Below, one piece after another: positions 17,367 to 56,442 of a stretch of 64,000 nucleotides of DNA. The notes below the pieces were generated by a model that had not been told where the DNA came from, did no database searches, and saw only the letters and a list, made by a program, of their open reading frames with translations. The position numbers and the translations under genes were made by a program. The first letter of the stretch is position 1. The number at the start of each line of letters is the position of its first letter. Source of the DNA: Candidatus Anderseniibacteriota bacterium (GTDB taxonomy: Bacteria > Patescibacteriota > Andersenbacteria > UBA10190); the NCBI GenBank assembly GCA_021414205.1, contig JAIOOW010000003.1, positions 195,370 to 259,369 on the forward strand. Direction: 5' to 3'.

Positions 17367-18059
17367 ATGGCCGGTATCTTGATCAGTTTTGATGGCCTAG
17401 ATTCATCGGGAAAAGCCACCCAGGCGGGTGTGCTTTTTTCGCATTTGGAGCACCGAGGTGCGCTTGTGAAGCGATTTGAATCCCCGGATTACACAACACC
17501 ATCTGGAAAAGAATTAAAATTGCGCTTGCAGGGTAAACTTGGCGATTGGGCGCATACGCCATGGCAAGAAAAGATGGGATACTTTGCTCAAAACAGAACA
17601 GAGCACAAGCAGGAAGTGCAAGATATTTTAAACCAAAACGGTATTATTATTTACGACCGTTATGTGCCGAGTAGTATCGCGTTTATGGTTGAAGAGGCTC
17701 ATGCTGCAGGTGAGGATAGGATTGCGATCCATAAGGCAGTACGTGAGCTTGAGTGCGACGTAAACGGTATGCCAAGAGAGCACATGTCGCTCTTTTTCGA
17801 TATTCCTCCAAAAGTGGCAATTGAAATGCTGGAAGGAAGAAAGGCGAACGCGGGTGATGAAAACGAAGTGACGGATCATATTTCTGTGCAAGAGGCCCTG
17901 CACGCAGAATATGTGCAGATGTGCAAAGAGTATCCTGAAACGATGATGCATGTGGTATGCATGAGCGGGGATGCGCTACGAAGCATTGATGACATAGCTC
18001 GAGAGGTGAGGACTCGACTTGCACAAACATTTCCCGAACACGTACAATTCTTTGCATGA
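17367..18059 (+). CDS. tmk: thymidylate kinase family protein (P-loop GLDSSGKAT, DRY motif)
   Basis: ISFDGLDSSGKATQ Walker A-like, YDRY lid motif; 230 aa. Confidence 0.7.
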   Translation: MAGILISFDGLDSSGKATQAGVLFSHLEHRGALVKRFESPDYTTPSGKELKLRLQGKLGDWAHTPWQEKMGYFAQNRTEHKQEVQDILNQNGIIIYDRYVPSSIAFMVEEAHAAGEDRIAIHKAVRELECDVNGMPREHMSLFFDIPPKVAIEMLEGRKANAGDENEVTDHISVQEALHAEYVQMCKEYPETMMHVVCMSGDALRSIDDIAREVRTRLAQTFPEHVQFFA

Positions 18060-18709
18060 ATCCATTTATTGTCCTAGAAGCATTAGACGCAGGAGGGAGT
18101 CAGACGCAGACAGATTTGCTATCTGCTCGATTAAAAAAAGAGGGGTACGTTCCGCATCAATATCATTTTCCGCAAGAAGATAGGGCCACTGGGAGAATGA
18201 TTTATGATAAGTTTTTGTTGTTCAAAAATAAATATCCATTTTCTCGCCGAGAACAAGCGTTGCTCTATATTCAAGATTTCTTTTCAAAACAAGAAGAATT
18301 TTTAGAAGTTATTTCAAGTACAAAAGAAAAGGCGATATTGGTTTCCGATCGCTATGCCACGAGCACGATGGCATACCAGACGATAGGATTACCAGGAGCA
18401 AAGCGCAAAGAAATGATGAATTGGGTTACGTGGCTGTGCTACAAAAATACGCCAGCATTACCGAAGCCAGATATTGTATTGTTTTTAGATACACCGGTTG
18501 AAGTTTCTTTGCAGCGTTTGGCAAAGAAAAAGAAAGACTTTTTTGAAACAAAAGAAAAGCTTACTGCAATCCGAAATAGCTATTTGAAGATTGCTAAAGA
18601 GCAGAAGTGGGTTGTGTTTAATAGTGTTGATGAGAATGGTGAACAAAAAACTCGCGAAGCATTGCACGAAGAGATTTGGACAGCGGTACAAAAGCGGTTG
18701 ACGAAATAG
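18056..18709 (+). CDS. thymidylate-kinase-like paralog with degenerate P-loop (ALDAGGSQT, no Walker-A lysine)
   Basis: FIVLEALDAGGSQTQ aligns to Tmk P-loop but K replaced by Q; DRY retained (SDRYATS); ATGA overlap with upstream tmk. Confidence 0.6.
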   Translation: MNPFIVLEALDAGGSQTQTDLLSARLKKEGYVPHQYHFPQEDRATGRMIYDKFLLFKNKYPFSRREQALLYIQDFFSKQEEFLEVISSTKEKAILVSDRYATSTMAYQTIGLPGAKRKEMMNWVTWLCYKNTPALPKPDIVLFLDTPVEVSLQRLAKKKKDFFETKEKLTAIRNSYLKIAKEQKWVVFNSVDENGEQKTREALHEEIWTAVQKRLTK

Positions 18710-47288: not shown

Positions 47289-49346
47289 GTGATTCTTCAT
47301 CTTAGGAATATTTGGCTTTGGATAGCAGGGGTTATTATTGCGGTCGCGGGCATTATATTATTTTTATTCTATGCGCCGTATTTAGGGGCTGTTTCGTATT
47401 TGCACCAGGGATTTTATATAGCATCACCGGATGTTCTGGTGGCAGGAGTCGTTAACACCATCACCTGGTCGGTAAGTGATACGAATGCGACAAAGTACCC
47501 TACGGAAAAAGTAGAGGTTTGCCGCGGAGCTCTGCCCGATCAGGGCTGTGTTTTAATTGCGGATGTTGTAAAAAATAATCGCAGTGCCCAAGCAATGGTT
47601 CCAATCACGATTCCTCGAGGGGTGGCATACTTGCGCATGACGGCGCGCGACGCTGCTGGGCAGCTCGTTTTAGGCGCTTCTTCTGCAAAAATGATTACTG
47701 TTGTGTCGTCGACTACAGTAGGGGCTGGCGATACGGTGCAGGCACTTTGGAAAAGAGATACAAGATATTCCGCGGTAAAAATAGAATTTTGTATTGCATC
47801 TAGTCCGACTGCAAAATGTATTACTCTTGCGTCGAAGATTGCAAATTCAGGAAGTGCAAAAATTACCGTACCGAAGGGTATCGTAAAGTCTGATGGATAC
47901 ATTGTGGTGCATAATCGTACGCTTGGTGGACTTCTCGTTTCTGGAAGTTCCCAATATGGATCAGCAAAAATTCTGCAAACGGCAAAACCAATCGCTGCTA
48001 CTGCAAGTTCTAGCGACGGAGGTTCTGGTGGTGGAGGAGGGTCTAACGATGGCGGCGGATCGAATGATCAAGGGCCTATAGATACTCCCGTAGTGACTGC
48101 GGAACCAACTCCAACGCCTGGGCCAACAGATAGCCCCGTACCTACGGACACGCCGAACCCTACAGAAACACCAACTCCTACCCCGAGCCAGACAGTCGAG
48201 CCGACCGTAACGCCAGAGATGAGCCCAACGCCAACAGCGGAACCGACATCTACGCCTACGCCGACCGTATCTCCAACAACAACGCCCACTAGTACTCCGA
48301 CAATGAGCCCGAGCCCTACGCCGAGCCCAACGCCATTTATAAGTTCGATTGCATGTAACGGCATAAACGTAAAAGATTACGGAGTGCTTGGTGACGGAAA
48401 GGCAGATGATACGGAAGCGATTAAAAAATCATTAAATGCTCCGGGCACCACTCTTTGTTTTCCTGCTGGGATTTACAGGATATCTGCTGAACTGAATTTG
48501 AGCGCACATCCAACTGTTATTAGTGACGCTGGCGCAATTATTGAGCAAACGTGTTCTACGTGCATTAGCTTCACGTTTTCGGGTCCATATGAAGTATTTA
48601 TACGCGGTATGAAATTCTTAGGCGGAAGGAATCAGATTGCATTTACGAATGACGGAAGTAAAAATTCTTCGTTACATATTATAGACTCTGAATTTCAGGC
48701 TTCGACTGGATATGCGGTTGCTGGCACTTCGGGGAATGTATTACCCGGAACTTTAAAGATTGAGCGTTCAAAGTTTGTGAATGGTAGAAAGGTTCTGCGT
48801 AATTCGTTTGCGTCTGCAACGGTGCAGGACACCTGGGTATCAGTAGGAAACAAGAATTTTGATACAGATTCTGCAGCATTTTGGAATATATCCGGAGCAT
48901 CGCTTGTATTTGATAATATGATGGGCACGCCGGCAATGGGCGAATCAACGGATCGCTTAAGTGCTGTTCGATGGGTGGATAATTATGGAATATTTCAGGC
49001 TCTACAAAGTAGGTTTGGAGGGGAAGCAGGGGGTATGCCGATTGTGTATCAGTATGCTGGGGGAAGCACAGGGGTTACGATTCGGGATTCTCAAATATCT
49101 TCTGGTCCGGGATTACAGAAAGATTCCGCGGTAATTGTGACAAAAAGCGCAGTGCCGGATACCGTAGCTATCTCGGGAGCGAATTTCTTAATTGAAGCTC
49201 CATATATTCTTGCTCAGGCTTTTGACATTGCAAAGTATGTGGTAGGACATTCTGGGCTGCATATTAACCTTGATGCAAACATGGCGTATCCGAGTTCCCC
49301 AGATATTCCGTCTGTGCTTGAGAAGTTTACTATAAGAAAGAAATAG
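47289..49346 (+). CDS. secreted right-handed beta-helix (pectate-lyase-fold, Pectate_lyase_3-like) protein with PT-rich linker
   Basis: N-terminal TM/signal; PTPTP linker; NVKDYGVLGDGKADDTEAI beta-helix signature. Confidence 0.65.
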   Translation: MILHLRNIWLWIAGVIIAVAGIILFLFYAPYLGAVSYLHQGFYIASPDVLVAGVVNTITWSVSDTNATKYPTEKVEVCRGALPDQGCVLIADVVKNNRSAQAMVPITIPRGVAYLRMTARDAAGQLVLGASSAKMITVVSSTTVGAGDTVQALWKRDTRYSAVKIEFCIASSPTAKCITLASKIANSGSAKITVPKGIVKSDGYIVVHNRTLGGLLVSGSSQYGSAKILQTAKPIAATASSSDGGSGGGGGSNDGGGSNDQGPIDTPVVTAEPTPTPGPTDSPVPTDTPNPTETPTPTPSQTVEPTVTPEMSPTPTAEPTSTPTPTVSPTTTPTSTPTMSPSPTPSPTPFISSIACNGINVKDYGVLGDGKADDTEAIKKSLNAPGTTLCFPAGIYRISAELNLSAHPTVISDAGAIIEQTCSTCISFTFSGPYEVFIRGMKFLGGRNQIAFTNDGSKNSSLHIIDSEFQASTGYAVAGTSGNVLPGTLKIERSKFVNGRKVLRNSFASATVQDTWVSVGNKNFDTDSAAFWNISGASLVFDNMMGTPAMGESTDRLSAVRWVDNYGIFQALQSRFGGEAGGMPIVYQYAGGSTGVTIRDSQISSGPGLQKDSAVIVTKSAVPDTVAISGANFLIEAPYILAQAFDIAKYVVGHSGLHINLDANMAYPSSPDIPSVLEKFTIRKK

Positions 49347-49351
49347 AAAAT

Positions 49352-50536
49352 ATGACTACTAAATACATTGCAATATACGCAGGGCTCGCAGTAATAATCG
49401 TAGCAAGTGTTAGTTTGTTATTTAGCCCATTTCGGCACTATCTCGGACTCACAACGTTTACTGCAAAGGATAAAAGTGGCCCATGTCAAAATGCTATTAA
49501 CGTGAAAGATTACGGTGCAAAGGGTGACGGCTCCGCGGATGATACAAAGGCTATTGCTGATGCATCTACGGCAAGCAAGACGTCCGTGCGAGCATCTGGA
49601 GCTATTAATGCATATATTGGTTCTTCTGACCCAATATGCTTTCCAGCAGGAGATTATAAAATTTCAAACGAGCTTGCATTGAAGGCGTATGCAAATATTT
49701 ATGGCGAAGGAGACGTAAGGATTACTCAGTCATGCGCTTCCTGTAATATTTTTGTATTCCGTGGCGGGTATACGATTACGCTTCGTAATATACATTTCAT
49801 TGGTGGAAAAAATCAGATATTTTTTGAAAATAACAATACCGATACTACTACGGTAGCAATTGAGAATAGCCAGTTTGAGTCAGCGAATGATTATGCCATC
49901 TATACAAATGGAACATCGGATGGGCATTTGTCCGCAGAAATTTCAATCTATGCTTCAAAATTTATTAATTCCAGAAAAGTAATGAGGAACGTAGCGGATC
50001 ACGTTATCATGCGCGACAGTTCGATTGTAGTAAGTAAAAATAATTTTGATGCAAATTCCGGCGCAATTTGGAACCGAGAATCAAGCTCGATATTTTTCAA
50101 TAATGTTACGGCAACCGCAAACTTGAACGGAGTGTCTCAGGTAAGATGGGTAGATAATAACGGAAACTTTTTCGTGGACAAGAGCATCTTTGCAGGAGAG
50201 AATGGCGGGATTCCAATTGTGTATCAATTTGGCGCGCCGATAACGGCATATCCGTTTATGGGAAAATCCGTTGTTATTCGAAACTCTAAAATTTCCGCAG
50301 GTTCAGATACGGTTATCGTGTTAAAAGAAGCAGTGCCGCAATTAGTACTCATGCAGGGGAATACCTATTCCGCAACGCATCATGTATTTTCAGATGCGGC
50401 TAGCCTGGCAGGGTATATAGATGCTGTAAATAAAGTGATGCCGTTATCGTTAAAGACTCAAGCATTTAATATTCAAGTTGAAGATGTGTCGCAAGCAAAT
50501 GTGCCTGCCGCTCTGCAAAGTTTTGTAAGGAAATAA
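49352..50536 (+). CDS. secreted beta-helix (pectate-lyase-fold) protein, paralog of upstream gene
   Basis: NVKDYGAKGDGSADDTKAI; ICFPAGDYKIS; collinear similarity with C-terminal half of 47289..49346. Confidence 0.65.
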   Translation: MTTKYIAIYAGLAVIIVASVSLLFSPFRHYLGLTTFTAKDKSGPCQNAINVKDYGAKGDGSADDTKAIADASTASKTSVRASGAINAYIGSSDPICFPAGDYKISNELALKAYANIYGEGDVRITQSCASCNIFVFRGGYTITLRNIHFIGGKNQIFFENNNTDTTTVAIENSQFESANDYAIYTNGTSDGHLSAEISIYASKFINSRKVMRNVADHVIMRDSSIVVSKNNFDANSGAIWNRESSSIFFNNVTATANLNGVSQVRWVDNNGNFFVDKSIFAGENGGIPIVYQFGAPITAYPFMGKSVVIRNSKISAGSDTVIVLKEAVPQLVLMQGNTYSATHHVFSDAASLAGYIDAVNKVMPLSLKTQAFNIQVEDVSQANVPAALQSFVRK

Positions 50537-51372: not shown

Positions 51373-51406
51373 CCGCTCGAACGATGTTTCGAGCGGTTTT
51401 TATTTT
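51373..51406 (+). terminator. rho-independent terminator
   Basis: CCGCTCGAA-CGATG-TTTCGAGCGG then TTTTTATTTT. Confidence 0.55.
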
Positions 51407-51663: not shown

Positions 51664-53052
51664 ATGCACAAGCTAATTATCTACCTGGATCAAAATTTCA
51701 TTAGCGATATTGCTAAGCAGTCTTTAGAAGACAAAAAAGATAAAGTAAAACCTCTTTTAAAGGACTTCTTTGAAGTCATAAAAAGTGGCGTAGATAACGA
51801 ACAATTTGTATCTCCTGACAGCTGGATTCACAAAATAGAAACAGCAGCAGAGAATGATCCAGAATTGCAGGAAGCGATACATAGCTATCAAGGCTATTTA
51901 GGGCAAATATCTTTTACGTTACCCCAGGAAATTCAAAAGACTCAATTCGAGAAAGCAGTCCTGAGCTATTTTAATATTCAGCCTGTCGACAAGGAAGATT
52001 GGAAAGAAGCTTTTAGGGAAAACCCTGATAAGCGGATGGAAAACTATAAGATCGATATACTCATGGATATTGGCAATTCCCTTGCCGTAAGCGCAGCAAC
52101 TATACAGAATTTACAAAAAATTCGTGAAAGTGGAGTAAGTGAGAAGGTCCAATACAAAGCGGAAATTGAAGCTAGTAGAAAACACTATAAAGAGTTAATA
52201 CGCAGGGATTTCTTGCCCATACTCGAACAGTACAGTATTAGTATCGAACAAGCAGAGGAATTTATTGATTCTAATGAATTCACTCAGATACCTAATATTG
52301 ATATCTTCTGTCACCTTTGGAGTAGATGCCTTGCCGATAAAGGTCGCAAGACGGGGGTAGAAGGTGATTACAATGATATCCAGTTACTCTCGACATATCT
52401 TCCCTATTGCGATCTCCTTGCCACAGACAACTACATGAAGACGATGGTTAAGGAATTTAAAATAGATCAGCAATATAGCTGCCAAGTTATATCAATGAAA
52501 GAAGGTGAATTAAATGAAGCTATTGATTTTCTAGAGCAGGAACAAATAGAAAGACCCCCAGCTAACCAGAGTTTATTTTCTGTTTTATGCACCAAGGCTA
52601 ATGAAATACAGGCTTACTCTGTAGAATTCTTACGAAAGCTCAGTTTAGCATCAAACAAATTTCACAGAACGGGAAAGTACTGGAATAAAGAAGTGTATAC
52701 TGAGGTTTTTCTCGAGTTCTCAGGCAAAGAGAATATTGATCGAGCAGACCCAAAAACTGTTTTAGAAGCAGGGCCAGCTGTTATTAGTCCTAGCCAGTGG
52801 ACAGAGCTGCAAATTTTTAATTCTGGTTTTAAGAGTATTGAAAACACTACGGACAAAACTCCTTCAGAACTCATAGAAACTATACCCACACACCTCCTTG
52901 GACCAGCTACTGCGATTTTACCCGAGGGTTCGGTCTTTGACGAAGACTTGCGTGAGCACGACAGTGATCTTTTTTATGATATTGAGGACGCTGTAGAAAA
53001 TAAACGAAGTAAAACAAAAAAGTATTCTATCGATATTATTCACAATGATTAG
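51664..53052 (+). CDS. hypothetical protein, AT-rich island gene A (462 aa, no recognisable domain)
   Basis: Long ORF with clearly lower GC than flanks; no SD; overlaps gene B by 8 nt. Confidence 0.7.
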   Translation: MHKLIIYLDQNFISDIAKQSLEDKKDKVKPLLKDFFEVIKSGVDNEQFVSPDSWIHKIETAAENDPELQEAIHSYQGYLGQISFTLPQEIQKTQFEKAVLSYFNIQPVDKEDWKEAFRENPDKRMENYKIDILMDIGNSLAVSAATIQNLQKIRESGVSEKVQYKAEIEASRKHYKELIRRDFLPILEQYSISIEQAEEFIDSNEFTQIPNIDIFCHLWSRCLADKGRKTGVEGDYNDIQLLSTYLPYCDLLATDNYMKTMVKEFKIDQQYSCQVISMKEGELNEAIDFLEQEQIERPPANQSLFSVLCTKANEIQAYSVEFLRKLSLASNKFHRTGKYWNKEVYTEVFLEFSGKENIDRADPKTVLEAGPAVISPSQWTELQIFNSGFKSIENTTDKTPSELIETIPTHLLGPATAILPEGSVFDEDLREHDSDLFYDIEDAVENKRSKTKKYSIDIIHND

Positions 53053-54850
53053 AACTGAGTTACAAAATTATCTTGAAGGATTAGAAACAAGCAAGGACAT
53101 GCTTGACGAGGTTGAAATTGGCCAAGAAATTAGTAAAATCCTTAAACCAAAAAATGAAAAACTTACAAACGAAGAAGAAATTGCAGAGTATATAGCATTT
53201 CACTTCCTACCAAAATATCCCGATACTCAAACTAGCTGGGGTACTTATTATGGGCCGTTATACATATTGCCAAACGAGAAGGGTCAATACTCTGAGTTTC
53301 CTAGTATACAGGGTGTGAATACAAAGACTCTTGAGTATTGGGAAAATAGAGCAAATCAATCTCAGAATCCATTATTGGTAGGCCGGTACGCAGACCTTGT
53401 TTTTGATTTGAGCGCCAAGATAAACAGTAGCGAAAATATTAAGTATCAAATGGCACGGAAAGTTATTGATTCCACAATTACCATTTGCGAACAAGGGTTA
53501 GCCGATAGCTTAGATTCCAAACAAAAGCTTGAGCGTGCTCTTTCTTTATCGAAACAGATCAATGATAAAGATAGAATTAATAAGATTAAAGAAACAATTA
53601 TTAATACTGAAAGAAGACTTGCAGAAGATACCAAACCAGGAACTTGGGGCTATTCGTTTGAATGGTTAGTACTTCACCGTGACCCCAAAGTAGTCCTGAG
53701 CGAGGAGGAGGAAAAAATGATAATCAGCAGCCTAGCGGAGAGACTAGAAAGGCTAACCAACACAGAAAGCTCTGATCCCTGGAAAGTAGAATGTGCGGTA
53801 AACCTTCTTGCAGACTTTTATGCCTTAAAAAAAGATGAAGCCTCTTTAAATGACGCTTTGAGCAAATTAGAACAATCTTTTAGATCTAATAGTCGTGCAA
53901 ACTCAGATGGTCTGTTGCTAGTTAATTACCTGGAAAGACTAAGAGAAGTGTATTCTCGATATTTACAATTTCAGTTCGCGAAAGATGCAATGGACAGAAT
54001 AACTGCTGAATTGAGTAATGTAGGCAGTAAGGCAAACTTTGACATGAAGGAAATCTCGGCCGAAGTGAAAGTAAAACAAGAGGACATAGACAGATTTCTG
54101 TTCTCAATTTTTGGAGATGATAAAGATAACAAAAAAGAAATTGAAGAAGTTGTCAGCAGATTAGTAGTCAGTTTTGTTCCAAAAAAAGATGAATTAGAGA
54201 AGCAATTTAACGACCCGAATAAACAATTTATCTTTCGACAACTAGGATCAAATATGATCGTTTCCGATAAAGATGGTTTCCCTATAGCGAAGTTTGGCCC
54301 CGTGAGTGAAGATTATGATAGCCATTTAGGACAGTATTTTTCTGAAAACCTACATTTTCAATCAGTCTTTTTGAATTTGTCCTTTGTTGAGCTTAGGAAA
54401 AAGTATACTCCTGAATCTTTATATGAGTTCATGGGATCCTCAGCACTCTTCCTGCCAGAGGACAAGGATTACATATTAAAAATATTAAACGCGTTCTGGA
54501 ATAAAGATTTTCTATATAGCGGTGCTTTAATGGTACCCCTAATCGAAGACACAGTTAGAAACGTCTTTAGGATAAATAAATTGTCATTTATAAAACCTAA
54601 CAGTAATGCTGGCTATGATGTTCTTCCCTTATATGACCTATTAAACCATGGTGTCATTAAAGCAATATTTGGAAGTCTCGGTGAAAACATTGAGTACTAC
54701 TTTAAATCCCTGCTGACTTCAAGAATAGGTTGGAACTTGAGAAATAATTTTGCGCATGGGATAAACAAGAACTATTTCGCTAGTCCGAACGTATCGAATA
54801 GGCTCTTGCACGTATTGCTTTGTCTTTCTCTCATTAGAAAAAATAAATGA
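53045..54850 (+). CDS. hypothetical protein, island gene B (601 aa) with C-terminal HEPN-like Rx4H motif
   Basis: C-terminal ...RIGWNLRNNFAHGINKNYF (R-x4-H, Abi_2/Swt1-type HEPN signature) after ~500-aa helical region; AT-rich. Confidence 0.7.
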   Translation: MIRTELQNYLEGLETSKDMLDEVEIGQEISKILKPKNEKLTNEEEIAEYIAFHFLPKYPDTQTSWGTYYGPLYILPNEKGQYSEFPSIQGVNTKTLEYWENRANQSQNPLLVGRYADLVFDLSAKINSSENIKYQMARKVIDSTITICEQGLADSLDSKQKLERALSLSKQINDKDRINKIKETIINTERRLAEDTKPGTWGYSFEWLVLHRDPKVVLSEEEEKMIISSLAERLERLTNTESSDPWKVECAVNLLADFYALKKDEASLNDALSKLEQSFRSNSRANSDGLLLVNYLERLREVYSRYLQFQFAKDAMDRITAELSNVGSKANFDMKEISAEVKVKQEDIDRFLFSIFGDDKDNKKEIEEVVSRLVVSFVPKKDELEKQFNDPNKQFIFRQLGSNMIVSDKDGFPIAKFGPVSEDYDSHLGQYFSENLHFQSVFLNLSFVELRKKYTPESLYEFMGSSALFLPEDKDYILKILNAFWNKDFLYSGALMVPLIEDTVRNVFRINKLSFIKPNSNAGYDVLPLYDLLNHGVIKAIFGSLGENIEYYFKSLLTSRIGWNLRNNFAHGINKNYFASPNVSNRLLHVLLCLSLIRKNK

Positions 54851-54869
54851 CGAGGACTTTATAAGCCAG

Positions 54870-55142
54870 ATGACCGAAGTAAAAGGTAAGATCAAGGCAT
54901 TGGAATTATTACAATCGGAATATTAGTCAGAACAGGATGATTTTGAAGAACTTATCACAATTGCTTTTGATGCACTTAAAAATCCGCTCAAGAGTTGGAA
55001 TGATCTAAAAGATACAAGAAAAAAAGTGCGGTTCGAACACTTTGTGTATCCTGGTGGCTTAGAATATGATGGAAAATCCTTGTCGAATCACGGAATTTCG
55101 CTTCTTGTGTGTTTATTTGCTACTGTTTCCGCTCAAAGGTAA
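54870..55142 (+). pseudogene. gene remnant interrupted by in-frame TAG (codon 19)
   Basis: Single frame reads MTEVKGKIKALELLQSEY*SEQDDFEELITIAFDALKNPLKSWNDLKDTRKKVRFEHFVYPGGLEYDGKS... with one internal stop at 54924-26. Confidence 0.35.
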
Positions 55143-55168
55143 AAAGTCGAACAAGCAATTATAGGAAA

Positions 55169-55240
55169 GTCCGGGGAATAGGAGTTGAACCTATCTAGAG
55201 GGATTTACAGTCCCTTGCATAGCCGATCTGCCATCCCCGG
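55169..55240 (-). tRNA. tRNA-Tyr (GUA), class I / archaeal-eukaryal type (5-nt variable loop, C1-G72)
   Basis: Manual fold: acceptor CCGGGGA/TCCCCGG, anticodon arm AGGGA-CTGTAAA-TCCCC, variable TCTAG, T arm ATAGG-TTCAACT-CCTAT, discriminator A; D stem only 3 bp. Confidence 0.7.
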
Positions 55241-55315
55241 TGGAGCCAGCTGTCGGAATCGAACCGACGATCTTCTGTTTACAAAACAGTTGCTCTACCA
55301 CTGAGCTAAGCTGGC
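55241..55315 (-). tRNA. tRNA-Thr (UGU)
   Basis: Acceptor GCCAGCT/AGCTGGC, anticodon loop TTTGTAA, T arm GTCGG-TTCGATT-CCGAC, encoded CCA. Confidence 0.85.
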
Positions 55316-55362
55316 ATATATACAAAACTGGCATCTGCCAGCGTTTCGTATACTATGAATAT

Positions 55363-56442
55363 ATGACAGAAAAACAAGAAATAATCAACCGTTTGCAGCA
55401 CAATTTGGCTGAAATCATCACACCGGAGGAATTTGAGGGGCTTATTACTAGAATTGAATCTGGCGAAAAAGTGACCCATTATATTGGGTTTGAAATCTCC
55501 GGATATGTCCATATCGGGCAGGGGATTATGTCTGCGCTGGTGATAAAAGACCTCCAAGCGCTTGGGGTGCAGTGCACTATTTGGTTGGCAGATTGGCATA
55601 CGGCCATTAATCATAAGTTAGATGGCTCAAAAGAAACGGCCGCGAAGATTGGTACAGGATATTTTACGGAAGCGATAAAAGCGTGCCTGATGGCCGTTGG
55701 CGCTGATATGGAAAAAGTAGAATTTCGATTGGCTAGTGAGTGGTATGCAAAAGATGCTATGGGATACTGGAATACCGTCATGAGCGTAGCGCAGAACACG
55801 ACACTGGCGCGCATTCAGCGAAGCATCAGTATTATGGGGAAAGAGGCAGGCGAAGATGTGGAAATGGCAACGCTGTTTTATCCTGTAATGCAGGTGGCAG
55901 ATATTTTTTATCAAGACATTGCAATTGCGCATTCCAGTATGGATCAGCGCAAGGCGCACGTAGTGATGCGAGATACGGCAAGTAAGGTAATGCCGAATAA
56001 GCCGAAGCCTGTAGCGCTGCATCATGCATTAATAGATAGTCTGACGGGCGATAATAAAATGAGCAAATCAAAACCGGATTCTGCTGTATTTGTTCATGAT
56101 GATGCTGAAAGTATTTCTGTAAAAATTAAAAAAGCATTCTGCGAAGAAAGAAATATTGAAAAGAATCCGATTTTAAACTGGACGAAGAATATTTTATTCT
56201 GGTCCCGCACGGCGCCATTTACTATTGAGCGAGAAGAAAAATTTGGTGGAAATGTTTCGCTTGCTTCGTATGAAGAACTAGAAAAAGCATTTGCAGCAGG
56301 TGGTGTGCATCCAATGGATTTGAAAGCTGCCGTTGCTAAAGAAATTATCGCGCTTCTGAAGCCGGCTCGCGATCATTTTGCGAAACCGGAAATTGCCGAG
56401 ATGAAAAAAGAATTAGACGATGTCATCACTAAGCGAGGATAA
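55363..56442 (+). CDS. tyrS: tyrosine--tRNA ligase, archaeal/eukaryotic type
   Basis: HIGH-like YIGFEISGYVHIGQ, YPVMQVADI, KMSKS, EKFGGNVSLASYEELE, HPMDLKAAVA; collinear with M. jannaschii TyrRS; ORF trimmed to ATG 55363 (track ORF runs over the tRNAs). Confidence 0.85.
   Translation: MTEKQEIINRLQHNLAEIITPEEFEGLITRIESGEKVTHYIGFEISGYVHIGQGIMSALVIKDLQALGVQCTIWLADWHTAINHKLDGSKETAAKIGTGYFTEAIKACLMAVGADMEKVEFRLASEWYAKDAMGYWNTVMSVAQNTTLARIQRSISIMGKEAGEDVEMATLFYPVMQVADIFYQDIAIAHSSMDQRKAHVVMRDTASKVMPNKPKPVALHHALIDSLTGDNKMSKSKPDSAVFVHDDAESISVKIKKAFCEERNIEKNPILNWTKNILFWSRTAPFTIEREEKFGGNVSLASYEELEKAFAAGGVHPMDLKAAVAKEIIALLKPARDHFAKPEIAEMKKELDDVITKRG

Follow-up and report, generated by a model that had tools for sequence, protein, structure and literature searches.

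We describe two overlapping genes, here called A and B, in a metagenome-assembled genome of Candidatus Andersenbacteria (Candidate Phyla Radiation, CPR; Patescibacteria). They lie in a stretch of 64,000 nucleotides (nt), referred to below as the window (contig JAIOOW010000003.1, positions 195,370 to 259,369; all coordinates without a locus name are window positions). The reading that we favour, and hold to be rather probable, is that the region is an acquired islet carrying two evolutionarily independent predicted nucleases which form no conserved pair. B is a predicted RNase of a known HEPN family, and A is a predicted PIN-like nuclease of a large family that lacks a domain model. This reading draws on the family memberships of the two proteins, the conservation of their motifs, their predicted folds, the gene contexts of their relatives and the separate occurrence of the two families. 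The two genes are:

51664-53052, + strand: gene A, an open reading frame (ORF) of 462 amino acids (aa)
53045-54850, + strand: gene B, an ORF of 601 aa

An earlier reading, made from the DNA sequence without database searches (the sequence-only reading), had described two ORFs of these lengths that overlap by 8 nt and have no Shine-Dalgarno sequence, and this description is confirmed: the ORFs share ATGATTAG, and no AGGAGG-like Shine-Dalgarno is visible ahead of the start of A or of B. That reading had gone on to propose that the genes form an undescribed toxin/sensor or abortive-infection module with a HEPN-type C-terminus, sitting at an integration hotspot.

No joint occurrence of the A and B families in 179 loci

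The co-occurrence of the two families was assayed in 179 fetched loci, using tblastn and profile hidden Markov models run against six-frame ORFs. We found the A family in 87 loci and the B family in 92, and no locus contained both (0/179). The closest relatives of B (53-57% identity) have no A gene nearby. A relatives, including the closest (58% identity), are mostly solo; their neighbours are variable and no partner recurs. The absence of any joint occurrence speaks against a conserved two-component system made up of A and B. The two-gene HEPN module, or toxin/sensor pair, of the sequence-only reading is consequently not supported, each family being common without the other.

The same counts bear on a toxin-antitoxin or toxin-sensor arrangement, in which one protein would neutralise or license the other. 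The genes are indeed adjacent and overlapping, and both carry toxin-type nuclease signatures; however, a cognate antitoxin should accompany its toxin, and A and B never meet in these loci. In addition, both proteins are large and have conserved catalytic-type residues, and there is no small DNA-binding antitoxin gene: the 306-nt spacer upstream of A contains no ORF, hence no small antitoxin gene. We regard such an arrangement as very improbable.

Protein B belongs to a known family of predicted HEPN RNases

Judged by its profile matches, B is a typical, full-length representative of the known DUF4209/C6orf70-type HEPN family, which is also PDC-S39. Firstly, Pfam DUF4209 (PF13910) matches B residues 501-592 on model positions 2-87 of 89, with an E-value of 1.2e-10 and 41.7 bits (gathering score, 22.3). 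The NCBI name for B is likewise 'DUF4209 domain-containing protein'. Secondly, two PADLOC models of the single-gene candidate PDC-S39 match B (PDLC05012, 2.1e-26; PDLC05011, 1.5e-21), in an alignment that is near full length, with residues 89-573 of 601 placed on model positions 91-574 of 615. Thirdly, DUF7380 (PF24098) reaches 24.6 bits at residues 96-179, just under its cut-off of 27, and many close homologues of B carry a precomputed DUF7380 match. The layout of the protein would thus be a DUF7380-like region, a helical region resembling tetratricopeptide repeats (TPR) and a DUF4209 domain of the C6orf70 type. Anantharaman et al. 2013 (PMC3710099) entered DUF4209 in the HEPN superfamily under the name C6orf70, with a conserved Rx4-6H motif and the descriptions 'fused to TPR', 'Bacteria > Eukaryotes' and 'occurs in R-M related operons' (R-M, restriction-modification); the eukaryotic DUF4209 protein (C6orf70) was predicted to be an enzyme of cellular RNA degradation (PMC3710099). 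The claim that B matches no well-known HEPN architecture and is undescribed therefore falls. This removes a false lead, since the protein belongs to a family that was classified in 2013 and is listed in PADLOC, to which B adds a member from the CPR (Patescibacteria). Three features of B are used below:

53330-53581, + strand: DUF7380-like conserved N-terminal region, B residues 96-179, with a RYADLV-DF motif; PF24098 match below threshold
54545-54820, + strand: DUF4209 domain (predicted HEPN), B residues 501-592; domain from Pfam, HEPN class from PMC3710099
54740-54757, + strand: Rx4H motif RNNFAH (R566...H571), predicted catalytic dyad, invariant in 53 homologues

The RNNFAH motif lies within IGWNLRNNFAHGINKNY, with R566 encoded at 54740-54742 and H571 at 54755-54757. 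In an alignment of 53 homologues that are 25-57% identical to B, R566, N567, H571 and G572 are invariant, as are numerous N-terminal positions, among them Y98, W99, Y115, L118 and R164. The sequence-only reading had correctly recognised a HEPN-type Rx4H motif, whose arginine and histidine prove to be conserved, and had placed it wrongly at the very C-terminal end: it stands 30 residues before the C-terminus. Its statement that B has no ATPase agrees with our Pfam search, which detected no ATPase domain in B. Its exclusion of the MNT-HEPN, PrrC/RloC and AbiE types is also borne out, as neither A nor B has a nucleotidyltransferase or ABC-ATPase match in Pfam or PADLOC.

We compared B with the known HEPN systems. 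In Pfam, B matches none of the other HEPN families (MNT-HEPN, AbiD/F Abi_2, AbiU2, RloC/PrrC, Swt1-like). It resembles them in its predicted Rx4-6H RNase chemistry and its residence in defence islands, and HEPN_Swt1-like or HEPN_AbiU2 genes adjoin some B relatives. In contrast to MNT-HEPN and RloC/PrrC, however, B is accompanied neither by a nucleotidyltransferase nor by an ABC ATPase. With the bacterial branch of the C6orf70/ERMARD-type HEPN proteins (DUF4209), B has in common a Pfam score above gathering, the Rx4H motif, a helical TPR-like region ahead of the HEPN domain and relatives adjacent to R-M genes. It departs from them in that the gene upstream of B is here PIN-like and not an R-M component, and in that B lacks the transmembrane segment described for eukaryotic members. 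The PDC-S39 models align with B nearly end to end, although the proteobacterial members are only ~25-30% identical to B and PDC-S39 is itself a candidate only. Two members of the B family, at locus L001 (8001-10868; P0007, 955 aa) and locus L037 (8001-10898; 965 aa), have a C-terminal extension of ~355 residues past the HEPN domain, for which no Pfam match was found.

Relatives of B reside among defence and mobile genes

The B-family scan covered one genome per GTDB species and returned 168 relatives, for which 79 loci were fetched. These loci span the CPR, Gammaproteobacteria, Bacteroidota, Planctomycetota, Chloroflexota, Elusimicrobia and Atribacterota, as well as one Woesearchaeote; to judge from this survey, the distribution of the family is patchy and reflects horizontal spread. 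Pfam matches among 111 co-directional neighbours of B relatives include HNH (5), GmrSD_N (4), EcoRI methylase (3), N6_N4_Mtase (3), type I S subunit (3), ResIII (3), MvaI/BcnI (2), Eco57I (2), EcoRV and EcoRII-C, together with the mobile-type matches phage integrase (3) and TraG (3). In PADLOC, the same neighbours match R-M systems of types I, II and III, mad2 and mad8 of MADS, NsnA and PD-T4-2_A. Individual loci illustrate these settings. At L001, a methylase and an MvaI/BcnI endonuclease are followed by the B relative; at L004, type III Mod and Res precede the B relative, which is followed by serine recombinases. At L176 the order is DUF6339, a weak HEPN_Swt1 match and the B relative, and at L177 the B relative lies near AAA_21/RloB and HEPN_AbiU2. 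Seven plasmid records contain distant B relatives, near integrases and toxin-antitoxin genes and named 'DUF4209 domain-containing protein' where annotated. Viral contigs yielded only 5 B relatives, all of them weak, and isolated phage genomes contain relatives of neither A nor B.

The settings of B relatives are thus defence or mobile ones, not core-genome ones, and the defence association that had been put forward for B is upheld by its homologues, which are not uniformly found in core-genome contexts. R-M genes of types I-III, MADS, HNH and GmrSD genes directly upstream of B-family members support a candidate defence role for PDC-S39/DUF4209. From sequence and context, a defence-type reading of B appears reasonable, but it is already published for a known family.

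HEPN domains generally dimerise into a composite RNase site. From what is known of such families we infer an activity, a trigger and a role in defence for B. The N-terminal DUF7380 and TPR-like helical region would serve sensing or auto-inhibition, and the C-terminal HEPN domain would dimerise to create the composite Rx4H RNase site. Infection, or the failure of a neighbouring defence, would then lead B to cut RNA, with growth arrest or abortive infection as the outcome. By analogy, B is probably an infection-triggered RNase. A would act as a metal-dependent endonuclease of the PIN-like type.

Protein A as a predicted PIN-like nuclease with a helical insertion

Protein A is annotated as 'hypothetical protein' and has no significant match in Pfam, PADLOC, NCBIfam or PHROGs; the same holds for 74 A relatives and for 10 distant relatives. 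The statement of the sequence-only reading that A has no recognisable domain holds for these sequence libraries and fails for the predicted fold. The structure model of A (predicted local distance difference test score, pLDDT, 90.3) is PIN-like, with a parallel sheet flanked by helices, at a moderate Z score. At the sequence level, comparison of A with the PDB, including a profile from which the insertion had been removed, gave chance-level matches only. The model suggests a PIN-like core formed by residues 1-86 and 232-296, split by a helical insertion (87-231) and followed by an alpha/beta domain:

51664-51921, + strand: first half of the PIN-like core, A residues 1-86; strands 4-8, 47-51 and 83-84; YLDQN motif (D9) and E59
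51922-52356, + strand: all-helical insertion in the PIN-like core, A residues 87-231; helices 87-224; boundaries inferred from the model
52357-52551, + strand: second half of the PIN-like core, A residues 232-296; D235, D238 and LPYCD-x-x-ATD (D250, D255); strands 251-253 and 274-276
52561-53049, + strand: C-terminal alpha/beta domain, A residues 300-462; in members of ~435-490 aa, absent from members of ~300-350 aa

Residues Y7, L8, D9, Q10, N11, S14, E59, G80, Q94, D235, D238 and Y248 are invariant in 74 members of the A family, down to 22% identity, and P247, D250 and D255 are conserved in at least 90% of these members. In the model, D9 follows strand 1 and E59 lies in the helix that follows strand 2; D235 and D238 open the helix ahead of strand 4, and D255 belongs to an 'ATD' motif after that strand. 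The conserved acidic residues fit the catalytic layout of PIN domains and may form a metal site. Going by the model, A is most likely a metal-dependent endonuclease that uses D9, E59, D235/D238 and D255, with RNase activity probable. It resembles the VapC/PIN endoribonucleases in where these acidic residues stand: one set follows strand 1, another lies in helix 3, and a third comes after strand 4 (T-D motif). It differs from them in its length (462 aa vs ~130), in its 145-residue helical insertion and extra C-terminal domain, and in having neither an adjacent VapB-type antitoxin nor a Pfam PIN match.

The family is large. Among 1.84 billion cluster representatives, a search with the family profile detected 2,539 relatives at E<=1e-3, and 1,285 at the stricter cut-off of E<=1e-10. 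Many relatives are 300-350 aa long and match only A residues ~4-296 (or ~3-330). A metagenome scan gave 208 relatives, and neither viral contigs nor plasmids contained any. The JGI (Joint Genome Institute) label 'ribosome-associated translation inhibitor RaiA', attached to two members (P0242 and P0243) of the A-family cluster of P0138, has no domain support and was treated as a misannotation.

A-family genes tend to follow transfer RNA (tRNA) genes. In 7 of 82 loci, the A-family gene starts 23-155 nt downstream of a tRNA gene that has the same orientation (L094, L095, L100, L009, L134, L140 and L151, with tRNAs Ser, Trp, Leu, Leu, Thr, Glu and Glu, respectively), and a tRNA lies within 2 kb in 11 of the 82. 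About 0.3 loci would be expected to show this adjacency by chance, given the tRNA density of the loci. Kinship among the tRNA-adjacent loci is possible, and they probably represent at least 5 independent cases.

This adjacency could also reflect a housekeeping or stress function in RNA processing, for example on tRNA or rRNA, of one or both genes, whose composition would then be merely unusual. The flanks of the pair, tRNA genes and a tyrosyl-tRNA synthetase (TyrRS) gene, would suit such a function, as would the predicted role of eukaryotic DUF4209 (C6orf70) in RNA degradation. Both families are nevertheless patchy across phyla and synteny is conserved for neither; the GC content of A and B is the lowest in the window, and R-M, defence and mobile genes dominate the neighbours of B. 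We therefore consider a housekeeping function unlikely, and keep to two independent nucleases on an acquired islet.

A broader proposal, which we advance tentatively and regard as doubtful, is that A represents a widespread new family of single-gene toxin/defence nucleases. The family would comprise 2,500 or more clusters (50% identity), have no Pfam or PADLOC model, be PIN-like with a helical insertion and be located preferentially just 3' of tRNA genes; here, it would have joined a PDC-S39 HEPN protein in a dual-RNase operon whose genes are translationally coupled. The present result matters in a limited way only, and the A family is its fresher lead: it is large, has a confident predicted PIN-like fold, lacks a Pfam or PADLOC model and tends to follow tRNA genes, which makes it worth naming and testing.

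The closest A homologues (~58% identity) have a conserved co-directional ORF of 185 aa ~40 nt upstream, which has no Pfam assignment and is missing from the window. Its positions are:

L005, 3808-4362: 185-aa ORF upstream of an A homologue
L091, 231-785: 185-aa ORF upstream of an A homologue
L092, 1406-1960: 185-aa ORF upstream of an A homologue
L102, 359-922: 185-aa ORF upstream of an A homologue

A different ORF, of 38 aa, overlaps the end of the closest A homologue (L005) by 8 nt. We considered it as a remnant of B and rejected this, as its sequence is unrelated and tblastn revealed no B fragment.

Composition and boundaries of the probable islet

We analysed the base composition of the 48 window ORFs of at least 120 aa (mean GC content 0.457; standard deviation 0.031). 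A (0.379) and B (0.363) have the two lowest values, and their GC content at third codon positions is similarly low (0.356 and 0.341, respectively, vs a mean of 0.435), in agreement with the low GC that the sequence-only reading had seen relative to the neighbouring genes. A thymidylate kinase ORF (18056-18709, + strand) has the third-lowest GC content in the window (0.390), so low GC by itself is no proof of foreign origin here. A foreign origin of A and B is suggested by the lowest GC content of the 48 ORFs taken together with flanks that are housekeeping, namely a Clp_N-domain protein on one side, and tRNA-Tyr, tRNA-Thr and TyrRS (a class I Tyr/Trp tRNA synthetase) on the other. The region is probably a horizontally acquired low-GC islet of ~3.8 kb, delimited as follows:

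51373-51406, + strand: intrinsic-terminator-like hairpin and T-run; 9-bp stem (51373-51396) with 6 GC pairs, then TTTTTATTTT
54851-55168, no strand: spacer between B and tRNA-Tyr, carrying a degenerate 96-codon frame with one internal stop (54852-55139)
55169-55240, - strand: tRNA-Tyr(GTA), right edge of the insert
55241-55315, - strand: tRNA-Thr(TGT), right edge of the insert

The strong terminator-like hairpin closes the upstream Clp_N-domain gene and bounds the low-GC insert on its left. On the right, 318 nt separate the 3' end of tRNA-Tyr from the 3' end of B, and the two 3' ends face each other. The degenerate frame, which takes up most of this spacer, has no Pfam match, no match in 90 loci and no homologue in a search of 5.8 billion proteins. 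A likeness to a recombinase C-terminus was considered and rejected, since BLASTP against the L004 serine recombinase gave an E-value of 0.45. The frame may be a decayed gene or non-coding.

Possible coupling of A to B and other points against independence

Several findings weigh against the reading of two independent nucleases on an acquired islet. The overlap of 8 nt points to co-transcription and translational coupling of the two genes at this site, in an operon-like arrangement. B-family genes are, moreover, usually tightly coupled to the gene upstream: it is co-directional in 60 of 77 loci, and among these 60 it lies at most 50 nt away in 37 and overlaps in 9, so that A could be the local partner of B. 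For A, the PIN assignment comes from a structure prediction whose Z score is moderate, no sequence-level link to PIN having been found. For B, we found no paper testing phage protection by PDC-S39/DUF4209 proteins, PDC-S39 being only listed in genome surveys. As to acquisition, there is no integrase ORF between 51358 and 55168, and the left boundary, when searched, showed no att-type direct repeat matching the 3' end of tRNA-Tyr. Thus, of the earlier claim, the placement between a terminator and the tRNA-Tyr/tRNA-Thr pair is confirmed, and the integration hotspot has only position and composition in its favour.

The coupling of B to upstream genes is the basis for a further explanation, in which A and B cooperate in this lineage. 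The B-family HEPN protein would be a promiscuous accessory effector behind varied nuclease modules (R-M, HNH, GmrSD), and would form here a dual-nuclease defence operon with a PIN-like partner. The overlap and shared composition of A and B fit this explanation, and so does the nature of the upstream partners of B relatives, which include nucleases and methylases of many kinds; so varied are these partners that clustering gave 73 singletons. Yet the 179 loci contain no second case of A next to B, and most A relatives stand alone among unrelated genes. Solo B relatives occur on plasmids too, and PADLOC treats PDC-S39 as a single-gene candidate. Cooperation is therefore possible but, in our view, rather improbable.

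Neighbouring genes

The tRNA-Tyr and tRNA-Thr genes abut without a spacer (55240/55241). The TyrRS ORF as mechanically listed (55240-56442, + strand, 400 aa) opens at a GTG within the tRNA genes; a TyrRS start at the ATG at 55363 agrees with the Pfam tRNA-synt_1b match. Two neighbouring paralogues, both on the + strand, contain Pect-lyase_RHGA_epim (pectate-lyase-like) domains: the protein encoded at 47289-49346 has a long Pro/Thr/Ser-rich linker, and the gene for the second, at 49352-50536, has a rather low GC content (0.406).

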